From a virus (lineage: Duplodnaviria; Heunggongvirae; Uroviricota; Caudoviricetes), in the IMG/VR virus record IMGVR_UViG_2713897055_000006: a stretch of DNA of 18,908 nucleotides; one strand, written 5' to 3'. The position numbers were made by a program. The number at the start of each line of letters is the position of its first letter. Position 1 is the stretch's first letter. Below, in pieces: positions 6,001 through 9,000 of the stretch.

Positions 6001-9000
6001 CAGTTGTTCAGGCTGGCTCACGTATTATAACTTATTCCCGAACTACCTTGAAACCGAGTCTTTCCAAGTATTCAATGAATGCCTCAACAGATAACACTAC
6101 ATGATCATCAGGAATTAACGCTGTGTAGGTAATACCCCCATTCTCAACGCGCACAGCATAGAGGCCATCTTCACTAAAAATTTCACGTAATTCTTCGATT
6201 TTCATCAACAGAATCCTTCCAGATAAATAGCACTCCCCCTGTTCGGGGTCCATCCCTCTTCTCCCTGCGCGCTACTTAAGTATTTTTGATTCTATTCTGG
6301 CACCGTCCAAAACTTCAAACACGTTGAAAATAAAAACAAAAAACCCGCCGAAGCGGGTATACTCAAACAATCTGGAAAATATTTCTTGGATTTGTAATAG
6401 GTCTGTTGATGGAGAACAACTCACGAATTAAATCTTGGCTCAAGCCAGTTTTCATAAGAATTCTTAGCCAGGTTGCATCATCCAGCATTTCAATCGCCTC
6501 GGCCAGCATGCCGGGTTCTTCAGGGCGCAAAAGTTCATCACCAGGTTCAACTCTCGTATACCCTCTGGAATTAAGATGCATATAGCCAGTTCTTGCCTGT
6601 TCCTGGGTCAATAAGCCTAATGCGCTGGCTCGATAAATACACATTTTAAGGCTGATTTTCCATCTAAGTTTAAATTCAACCAGAGCATTCCAGTCGAATT
6701 GCTTACCTCGTATTCGTGGAAATTCTTTAATGAAAGATAACCTGGGAACTAATAAGGCGCTCGAAAAGTGATCGGCTTGTGATTCCGTAAGTTTATCACC
6801 TGTCGTTATGCCCTCATGCATTACTAAATGCCCTAATTCATGACCTAAATCAGAGCGAAATCTACATATGCTTTTTTTTAACATTGTTCCTGATGATAAC
6901 AGGCCTGTTATTGTGAACAGTAAAAGCATCAACACGATCATCGACTCCCGTAACATGCGCAACGATTACCCCTAAACTCTCCGCCAATTTAACCATTGAT
7001 GATATAGGGCCAAGACCTAAATTCCAGGCACGGCGACAATCTTCTGCCACTCGCTCAATATCATTCGGAGTAAGTAATTCAGCCCCTGGGTGCTCCGGTA
7101 TGTTAACGTCAGGAAATTCGATTTCACCTTCAACAGCAGAAATTATAATATTAAGAATCTCAGCCCTGGCCAATACACTATTAGTCAGCGTTTGAGTCCT
7201 GGACTTCTTACTCCGAAAATGGCAGACATCACTTTCCAGAGCGTATTTTCGTTCAGTAAAAAGAAAACTGGACTTAATCATAAGCGCTGAAGATATTAAC
7301 TCAAGACATTGCTCCGATGGCCTGCACCCCTTCTCCAGTTTGCTAACGAATTGCTTTGTCTTGCCAATTTTTTTCGGCTAACTCTTCACAAGAAAGCCCA
7401 ACAGCCATTCTCGCTAGTTTGAGCTTATCACCCCGATACTCAGTGAAGTTATTCACCTGATGTTCCATCACTGCTCACATCCAAATCTTTATCCTTCGTA
7501 CGCCGACGAAGAGGCACCTTATTAATCTCCGCTTCGTCAGGGAGTGTGTTATAATCAAGAGGCATAAGCGGCATCGATGCTGTAGATTGATGAGAAACTA
7601 TACTAATCTGAGCACCATAAGTATTAAATCCAACAAGAGCTACCTCCCAACGAGGCAGTGTGGACTCTAATTCACCATCGCCCTCTTCGGATAAAAAAAG
7701 GCTCAGCTATGACTCGCCATGTAATATCTTGCTCAGCCTCAACATCACCAAACAATGAGAGCTGCTCATACTCTACTTTATTTCGACGCAGACGATGTTT
7801 CTTTTTGGGGTTATTAATGCAATCTTTGGTAAATTGTAGCGGAACTTTATTTAAAGCAACTACATAGTCCAACCCCTTGGAAATCATCTCAAGGCCAGGA
7901 ATTGCATCTTCATTTTGAATAAGATGATTTCTGACCCAATCATAAGCCCTTACACCTTCAGACCAGTTGCTGTCTAATGCGTGCTTATGATAGTACAGCT
8001 GCTCAAGTACGTTAGCGATCTCCGCCAACAAGTGGCGAACATAGTTTTCTGCAAGATAAGGTTGAAATTCCCAACAAGGAGCTAACTGATTTTCATTCAT
8101 TTCAAGTTTCGCTTTTTTTAGAATTCGTAAACCACATATTTTCGCATTTTTCTATTTTTGTCAACCAGACTAATGCAAAAACCCGCCGAAGCGGGTTAAG
8201 TGCGGGTGCGTTGAGGATGCCTGGCACATCAGAGGTGGCGGGAGATTACTCCCCCGCCGGGTCTCTTACTCCTCAGGTTCGTAAGCTGTGAAGACAGCGA
8301 CCTCCGTCTGGCCGGTTCGGATTCGTACCTCGCAGAGGTCTTTCCTCGTTACCAGTGCCGTCACAATGACGGTTAAACAGATGACGATCAGGGCGATTAG
8401 CATCGCCTTTTGCTGCTTCATAGCCTGCTTCTCCTTGCCTTTCGGCACGTAAGAGGCTAACCTACGTGTGTAGAGCATAGATATGGCCTCAGATTAATGT
8501 TAAGCGTCTTGCCGGACGCGTAATGTTAACTGGGGCTTTTCTCTATCTGCCTTTTGGTGTTCATGCCTGAGACAGATAGCCTCAAGCACCCGCTGCAATT
8601 CTACTTAACTCTCCTTTTCCCGCAAACCGTTTTTATCCCCAGCGGCAAATCGAATACACCACCAGCGCCACCGCCATCGCAATTCCTACCGTTGTTAATG
8701 CTTCAGGCCAGGTCATCGTAAAATATCCTCCACGCTTATCAGTCCGTTCCGCTCCAGATAACTCATCGCCTTATCCGGTAATTTGCAGTCTGGCTTCGCT
8801 TTCCTCAGTTGCCAGGTTAACTGCTTTACCAGCATGGTTAACTCATCGACCAGACGCTGATATCCCACTGGTTTGTATTCATGCAATTTACCGGCTGGCT
8901 CTGCTGCCAGCGATACCAGTGCGATTTCCAGAACAGCAATATCCATCTTTTATATGTGCGGATGATGTCATGGTCGATTGTGCCCGGTATGCACAGTCTC

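Follow-up and report, generated by a model that had tools for sequence, protein, structure and literature searches.

Is a gene that loses its reading frame twice, each time at a run of a single base, truly a broken gene? This question is raised by the minus strand at positions 6363-7468 of IMG/VR record IMGVR_UViG_2713897055_000006. The record is an 18,908-nt stretch of DNA, hereafter called the window, and is the whole of draft contig JNNK01000057.1 of assembly GCA_000749525.1. Because it carries stx2B and stx2A, the window is a Shiga toxin 2 (Stx2)-converting lambdoid prophage of an STEC strain (E. coli that produces Shiga toxin). In this study, we found that the interrupted gene corresponds to rmrA, the predicted antitoxin gene of a RosmerTA system. 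The two breaks in rmrA most likely result from homopolymer miscalling, which added one A to each tract, in a draft contig of poor quality, a reading in which we place fairly high confidence. The real strain most likely carries the intact, widespread rmrA allele.

Reconstruction of rmrA and its assignment to RosmerTA

Translation of the minus strand at 6363-7468 gave three successive frames. The first was MEHQVNNFTEYRGDKLKLARMAVGLSCEELAEK (beginning with MEHQ and ending with AEK), the second was IGKTKQ...VIIRNNVKK, and the third was SICRFRSDLGHELGHLVMHEG...NIFQIV*. Both breaks were located at homopolymers, T7 at 7368-7374 and T8 at 6872-6879 on the plus strand, corresponding to A7 and A8 of the coding strand. 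When one A was removed from each tract, an open reading frame (ORF) of 367 amino acids (aa) and a stop codon was obtained. The repaired protein was the same as WP_000401168.1 of E. coli 042 (NC_017626.1), with 0 mismatches over 1,104 nt. A 1,301-bp region was matched by 238 complete E. coli records, 224 of them at an identity of at least 99%, and the best complete-genome matches were 1,299 bp long, shorter by exactly the two extra bases. These matches indicate that the reconstruction of a single gene is not due to chance. The homologues were single intact 367-aa genes. An earlier note on this DNA had joined the three fragments into one gene for an HTH (helix-turn-helix) and HExxH peptidase protein, and had proposed that each break lies at a homopolymer and is mended by deleting one A. 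Both proposals were borne out, and the size it gave, about 380 aa, was too large.

The first fragment (7343-7468) starts with an ATG at 7468 and forms a 41-aa ORF, of which the first 33 residues are native and make up the N-terminal half of the XRE/HTH_3 domain. Its product is identical to STF66631.1, and two other assemblies with the same +1 allele share it. The first tract (7368-7374) has A7 on the coding strand versus A6 in all intact relatives, with the +1 in codons 32-34 (LAEKIGK). The second fragment (6880-7367) contains native residues of about 34-198, which complete the HTH, span a linker, and enter the M78 domain; the mechanically called ORF is at 6862-7281. The second tract (6872-6879) has A8 versus A7 in all intact relatives, and here the +1 falls in codons 197-199 (NVKKSIC). 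The third fragment (6363-6871; mechanically called ORF at 6363-6962) holds the HELGH core of Peptidase_M78 and the C-terminal region, and ends with the stop codon TGA at 6365-6363. All these features are on the minus strand. The first break is therefore within the HTH_3 domain, and the second is within the M78 domain, about 10 residues N-terminal of HELGH. If the breaks were real, the rmrA of the window would be a null allele.

The domain content of the rebuilt protein was examined using Pfam. HTH_3 was matched at residues 16-62 (5e-07, 30.1 bits, cut-off 23) and Peptidase_M78 at residues 176-281 (6.5e-11, 42.6 bits, cut-off 22). Both matches exceeded the Pfam gathering score, and they were exactly the two domains that the earlier note had predicted. 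The HExxH motif of the protein is HELGH at residues 209-213. In PADLOC, the RmrA profile PDLC03943 matched residues 11-350 of 367 over profile positions 2-342 of 370, at 6.2e-105, and thirteen more RmrA profiles matched the protein at 3e-70 to 6e-30. The NCBIfam model NF052239, a spr1629 repressor/antitoxin, matched residues 11-355 over profile positions 2-368 of 377 (E 1.5e-45). Its full-length architecture is alike, but the score of 155.9 bits was below the cut-off of 335, so that RmrA is a relative and not an equivalog member. A sequence search of PDB matched RmrA to HTH domains only.

A partner toxin gene, rmrT (7449-8100, minus strand), is located directly upstream of rmrA. In intact relatives the two genes are co-oriented, with the toxin first and an overlap of 20 nt. 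The intact rmrT encodes 216 aa. Here, a +1 frameshift in the tract at 7693-7699 (minus strand), where the coding strand has T7 versus T6 in relatives, separates a 142-aa ORF at 7672-8100 from a C-terminal remainder at 7449-7692. A one-base repair gave a protein identical to that of E. coli 042, which is annotated as WP_001004956.1. The 216-aa RmrT was matched by PADLOC PDLC03929 at residues 7-209 (4.6e-25) and by PHROG 5786 (8e-85), and it had no match in Pfam, NCBIfam, or PDB. This gene and its frameshift, as well as five further like events in the window, had been overlooked in the earlier note.

Because the RmrA and RmrT profiles match the two overlapping genes, rmrT-rmrA is assigned by sequence to the RosmerTA toxin-antitoxin anti-phage defence system, with rmrA as its predicted antitoxin. 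The intact gene and the RosmerTA system are already known, and standard defence-finder profiles recognise the pair; of 5,426 finished E. coli genomes, about 237 carry it. In a previous report, RosmerTA was presented as a toxin whose function is unknown and an antitoxin that is a Zn-peptidase, and transformation with an rmrA deletion did not succeed (Millman et al., 10.1101/2022.05.11.491447). According to another report, the antitoxin RmrA is an ImmA protease that often bears an HTH at its N-terminus, with diverse partner toxins and a variable gene order; the toxin comes first in 58% of the RosmerTA-type class (Ernits et al. 2023, PMC10440598). Phage protection was demonstrated for other RosmerTA members (10.1101/2022.05.11.491447; PMC10440598). 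The present pair shares with RosmerTA a two-gene operon with the toxin first, an antitoxin with an HTH and an ImmA-type Zn-peptidase, a toxin partner with no known domain, and a location in a prophage. Millman et al. cite a prophage module of E. coli E101 (E101_02645/E101_02644) for the RosmerTA configuration. That module is also prophage-borne, with a domain-less toxin upstream of its antidote, and it renders clpP essential (Rousset et al., 10.1101/2020.05.25.114553). Its proteins have different accessions (WP_001179380.1 and WP_000481765.1), and it is likened to the present pair by layout and not by sequence identity.

By analogy with characterised RosmerTA systems, RmrA, which consists of an XRE HTH, an ImmA/IrrE zinc metallopeptidase, and a C-terminal region, would keep the upstream toxin RmrT harmless. 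The RosmerTA literature suggests that RmrA probably represses its own operon through the HTH, and that phage infection may upset the toxin-antitoxin balance and free RmrT. The peptidase possibly acts in an ImmA-like cleavage step, since ImmA-like HTH-cleavage regulation was proposed for Rosmer-like antitoxins by Ernits et al. (PMC10440598).

That proposal also fits another view of the intact protein, which starts from the comparison with CapH/CapP and ImmR/ImmA in the earlier note: it would be an HTH-peptidase regulator that senses DNA damage and derepresses neighbouring accessory genes after cleaving itself or a repressor, and not a classical protein-binding antitoxin. The same HTH_3 and Peptidase_M78 content, the location of the gene in an SOS-inducible prophage, and weaker PADLOC matches to capP (1.6e-14, residues 160-283) and capH (1.5e-4) are consistent with such a regulator. 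ImmR/ImmA, from ICEBs1 of Bacillus subtilis and from phage-like elements, likewise combines an M78 HExxH peptidase with an XRE HTH repressor in the control of a mobile element, and CapH/CapP combines an HTH repressor with an M78 peptidase. However, ImmR and ImmA are two proteins, of which the protease cleaves the repressor, and their target is an integrase/excision operon, whereas here both domains are fused in one chain and the sole operon partner is RmrT-like. The window prophage encodes a separate cI-like/Cro-like switch at 15011-15856. CapH and CapP are encoded by separate genes beside an operon of CBASS (cyclic oligonucleotide-based anti-phage signalling system) and respond to DNA damage, in contrast to the fused 367-aa chain. 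No CBASS genes (CD-NTase, effector) or genes of an integrative and conjugative element were found beside rmrA, where the neighbours are hokD, rmrT, rem, DUF968, and rusA. The RmrA profile is the best full-length match by about 90 orders of magnitude, so the kinship with the two regulator pairs holds at the level of domains. The DNA-damage trigger that the earlier note had proposed is not documented for the RosmerTA family in either of the two reports (10.1101/2022.05.11.491447; PMC10440598). We consider it unlikely that the protein is such a regulator.

Single-base insertions along the contig

The window was compared with E. coli 042, NCCP15648, ABU 83972, and RM7190, and indels private to the window were counted in the near-identical parts. 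Eight private single-base insertions were found, all in A/T runs, and there were no single-base deletions (8 versus 0, two-sided sign test p = 0.008). The +1 events have a density of about 1 per 2.3 kb of contig. The proportion of affected runs rose with run length, from about 1 of 48 five-base runs to 3 of 18 six-base runs and 4 of 11 seven-base runs, and all four 8-base runs of the window are lengthened 7-base runs.

Besides the two tracts in rmrA and the one in rmrT, five events were found in this comparison. Two of them are intergenic, a T7 to T8 change at 89-96 downstream of stx2B and an A6 to A7 change at 1483-1489 between the tRNA genes and stx2A. An A7 to A8 change at 3896-3903 (minus strand) lies in the gene for the Q antiterminator, which has 273 aa in relatives and is split here into ORFs of 126 and 172 aa. 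In ydaT, which encodes 141 aa in relatives, A5 became A6 at 14961-14966 (minus strand). The last event, A7 to A8 at 15397-15404 (plus strand), affects codons 2-4 of a cI-like HTH repressor gene. The repressor has 153 aa in relatives, and the shifted gene is annotated as a 147-aa product (KFV26214.1) from a GTG at 15413.

A difference of +TT at 8948-8949 was considered as a ninth error and rejected, because the resulting 77-aa product recurs in the closest relatives and was counted on at least 1,000 contigs. By comparison with 042, NCCP15648, and ABU 83972, these two bases shorten a 114-aa hypothetical protein to 77 aa (gene at 8713-8946, minus strand), which is natural variation.

The closest relatives of the window were defined as 24 contigs that encode its rare Ead-like allele (shown as L017 and L018). 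In these 24 contigs the repressor (153 aa), YdaT (141 aa), RmrT (216 aa), RmrA (367 aa), and Q (273 aa) were all intact. Over 16.2 kb, six +1 homopolymer insertions but only five substitutions set the window apart from them; three of the substitutions were within 22 nt. The substitutions at 13488, 13500, and 13509 produce an allele of a DnaT-like replication protein (KFV26212.1; 13489-14529, minus strand) that is on no other contig. This cluster at 13488-13509 could be a local cluster of errors or a small recombination patch.

The longer tracts of rmrA were absent from finished genomes. The A7 form of the first tract was found in 0 of 224 complete E. coli records, and the A8 form of the second in 0 of 233. 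By exact-sequence look-up, a collection of about 15 billion proteins contained neither the middle fragment of 139 aa, nor any of three versions of the C-terminal one, nor either piece of Q, nor the ydaT piece; the combination in the window is therefore unique.

The quality of the contig was assessed at its end. Here a prophage exonuclease gene is joined to the last 155 bases (18754-18908, plus strand), which contain the 3' end of rpmB and the beginning of rpmG. This rpmB-rpmG segment, from single-copy core genes, is shared at 100% identity by 5,425 of 5,426 finished E. coli genomes, and the fusion is almost certainly a chimeric assembly end. Such an end points to an unreliable assembly. The junction also creates a 150-aa exonuclease ORF (KFV26220.1), which is on no other contig; a frameshift or an IS1 insertion was considered as its origin and rejected.

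The neighbouring accession prefixes JNNI, JNNJ, and JNNL belong to three drafts of STEC O91:H21, for which sequencing was done with the Ion PGM and assembly with MIRA at 23-36x (PMC4192381). JNNK probably shares this batch and chemistry. Ion Torrent assemblies have been reported to yield hundreds of false frameshift pseudogenes at homopolymers (PMC3917457). The events in the window resemble the false frameshifts of Ion Torrent, 454, and early long-read data, in that they are single-base changes in A/T runs, depend on run length, and produce many apparent pseudogenes. They differ in that all of them are insertions, and the platform of this record is an inferred one.

These results argue for miscalls as the origin of the two rmrA breaks. 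The argument rests on private +1 events without deletions, whose rate rises with run length; on insertions that outnumber substitutions while the genes are intact in the closest relatives; and on longer tracts that are absent from finished genomes, in a contig with a chimeric end and with Ion PGM/MIRA drafts as its neighbours. The earlier note had called the gene broken. This is correct for the sequence as assembled, and it most likely does not extend to a biological pseudogene, in view of the contig-wide set of eight +1 insertions and the chimeric end.

Tract alleles in other assemblies and rival readings

Several observations weigh against miscalls. The chemistry of JNNK was deduced from accession adjacency and STEC content and not from the record itself; the literature search found no paper on JNNK00000000 or GCA_000749525, and only the neighbouring prefixes are documented. 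The A7 form of rmrA is also present in the NCTC (National Collection of Type Cultures) assembly GCA_900448385.1, in ENA ERZ21846222, and in Logan SRR25895526. The A8 form of rmrA is on 5 Logan contigs, and the T7 form of rmrT is in GCA_047499775.1, ENA ERZ27259788, and Logan DRR387141, all three with an intact rmrA. A 997-nt Logan contig (SRR25895526_66422, here L006), equivalent to 7110-8106 of the window, has both the rmrT T7 and the rmrA A7. It lacks the single-nucleotide polymorphism (SNP) of the window at 8050 and carries a different one, at 7506; because the SNP at 8050 is missing, L006 is independent of the window. It reflects either the same error-prone chemistry at the same tracts or recurrent real slippage. 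Given the same alleles in other assemblies, the tracts could be genuine slippage hot spots, and a toxin broken along with its antitoxin is a biologically coherent genotype.

The frequency of such alleles was compared with that of the intact one. For each of the three tracts, public sequences include both +1 and -1 alleles, on 3, 9, 5, 18, 5, and 3 contigs (9, 18, and 3 for the -1 forms), whereas contigs with an intact allele number more than 1,000. As a control, an unrelated A7 tract in the cI-like gene had a similarly low level of +1 variants. Since the variants are so few compared with the intact contigs and the control tract of the repressor gene behaves alike, the recurrent alleles are read as a general background of homopolymer miscalls and rare slippage and not as a property of this locus. 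In two of the contigs, L004 (GCA_900448385.1 UGAF01000006.1, 9370-11105) and L005 (an ENA metagenome contig), rmrT is intact and rmrA has the first +1 alone, leaving a 41-aa ORF and a 305-aa M78 ORF from an internal ATG. In L004 the cassette is located in a different lambdoid prophage, next to a P22 Cro-like gene and a methyltransferase gene. An intact toxin with a broken antitoxin would be expected to be lethal if real, which favours error in these contigs unless the 305-aa product neutralises the toxin.

If the frameshifts are real, the Stx2 prophage would be decaying by replication slippage at A/T runs, for example through mismatch-repair deficiency or relaxed selection, and this would have disabled rmrT and rmrA (the latter at two sites), as well as Q, ydaT, and the start of the repressor gene. 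Slippage would likewise account for the dependence on run length. It would also account for the same alleles in independent assemblies, including a SPAdes contig at about 289x and the double-allele contig without the lineage SNP. The joint loss of toxin and antitoxin is viable, and a prophage with a broken Q would tolerate the loss of its repressor. However, six frameshifts against five substitutions is far from an ordinary mutation spectrum, and all eight events are +1. By extrapolation, 1 event per 2.3 kb would amount to roughly 2,000 events in a 5-Mb genome. The fragments are combined in no other assembly, the contig has independent signs of poor assembly, and its neighbouring accessions come from an error-prone chemistry. 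We regard decay by slippage as unlikely, and as the chief rival of the miscall reading. A stronger form of it, in which the insertions are real and the A/T tracts in rmrT-rmrA, Q, and the repressor gene are recurrent hot spots that silence a prophage defence or toxin-antitoxin module in natural STEC populations, appears quite improbable. If it were true, the alleles with the first tract alone and an intact toxin would mean that neutralisation does not require the HTH and that the 305-aa product from the internal ATG suffices.

The tracts might instead be functional switches, either contingency loci whose slippage turns the prophage defence or toxin-antitoxin module off and on, or sites where programmed ribosomal frameshifting or slippage during transcription yields full-length RmrA despite the frameshifted template. 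Runs of A7-A8 are known slippery templates for RNA polymerase, and the presence of +1 and -1 alleles at each of the three tracts is what a switch would produce. A phase-variable locus, however, is recognised by frequent on/off variation among close genomes, and here the variants are rare against the intact contigs and absent from the 224-233 finished genomes, while the unrelated A7 tract is equally variable, which points to background and not to the locus. RmrA would need two corrections on one mRNA and the toxin a third. The tracts are ordinary AAA-AAA lysine codons, and no stimulatory structure was noted. For the rarity of the variants, the like behaviour of the control tract, and the three corrections required, programmed frameshifting and phase variation were rejected, and we find a functional switch scarcely credible. 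The reading that we prefer remains that of miscalls in a poor draft contig.

Cassette context and implications

The rmrT-rmrA cassette is located between hokD and rem/DUF968/rusA/Q of the lambdoid Stx2 prophage of E. coli, and it is a typical moron-like insertion. An intrinsic-terminator-like hairpin, ACCCGCTTCGGCGGGT followed by a T run, is directly after the rmrA stop codon (6343-6358, minus strand). A second copy of the hairpin and T run is at 8180-8197 (minus strand), after hokD and upstream of rmrT. The two copies thus bracket rmrT-rmrA. The Stx2a prophage of RM7190, which lacks RosmerTA, carries the hairpin once, and this suggests that the cassette entered either at a duplicated terminator or along with one.

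The region upstream of rmrT was also inspected for regulatory elements. A near-palindrome, TTTACGAATTCTAAA, at 8116-8131 on the minus strand is a candidate operator for the HTH of RmrA. A perfect TTGACA at 8158-8163 on the minus strand, between the hokD terminator and the rmrT start, is a candidate promoter element. A consensus scan for promoters upstream of rmrT found nothing above the shuffled expectation.

The Stx2 genes are both on the minus strand. The B subunit encoded by stx2B (189-458) matches its counterpart in E. coli O91 RM7190 at every residue, and the A subunit encoded by stx2A (470-1429), which ends in ...FLYTTGK, differs at 3 residues. Three tRNA genes lie between a DNA methyltransferase gene and stx2A, also on the minus strand: Arg-tct (1521-1597), Arg-tcg (1611-1687), and one with a CAT anticodon (1697-1772). 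The last was called Met by ARAGORN and is Ile in the RefSeq annotation of relatives.

The finding has little biological import of its own, as the intact pair is the known RosmerTA. It calls for caution with this record, since the apparent pseudogenes on JNNK01000057.1, including Q, which governs Stx2 expression, are not interpretable without resequencing. If the frameshifts were true, the isolate would carry a Stx2 prophage without late-gene antitermination and without its defence module, and this would bear on its toxin expression.

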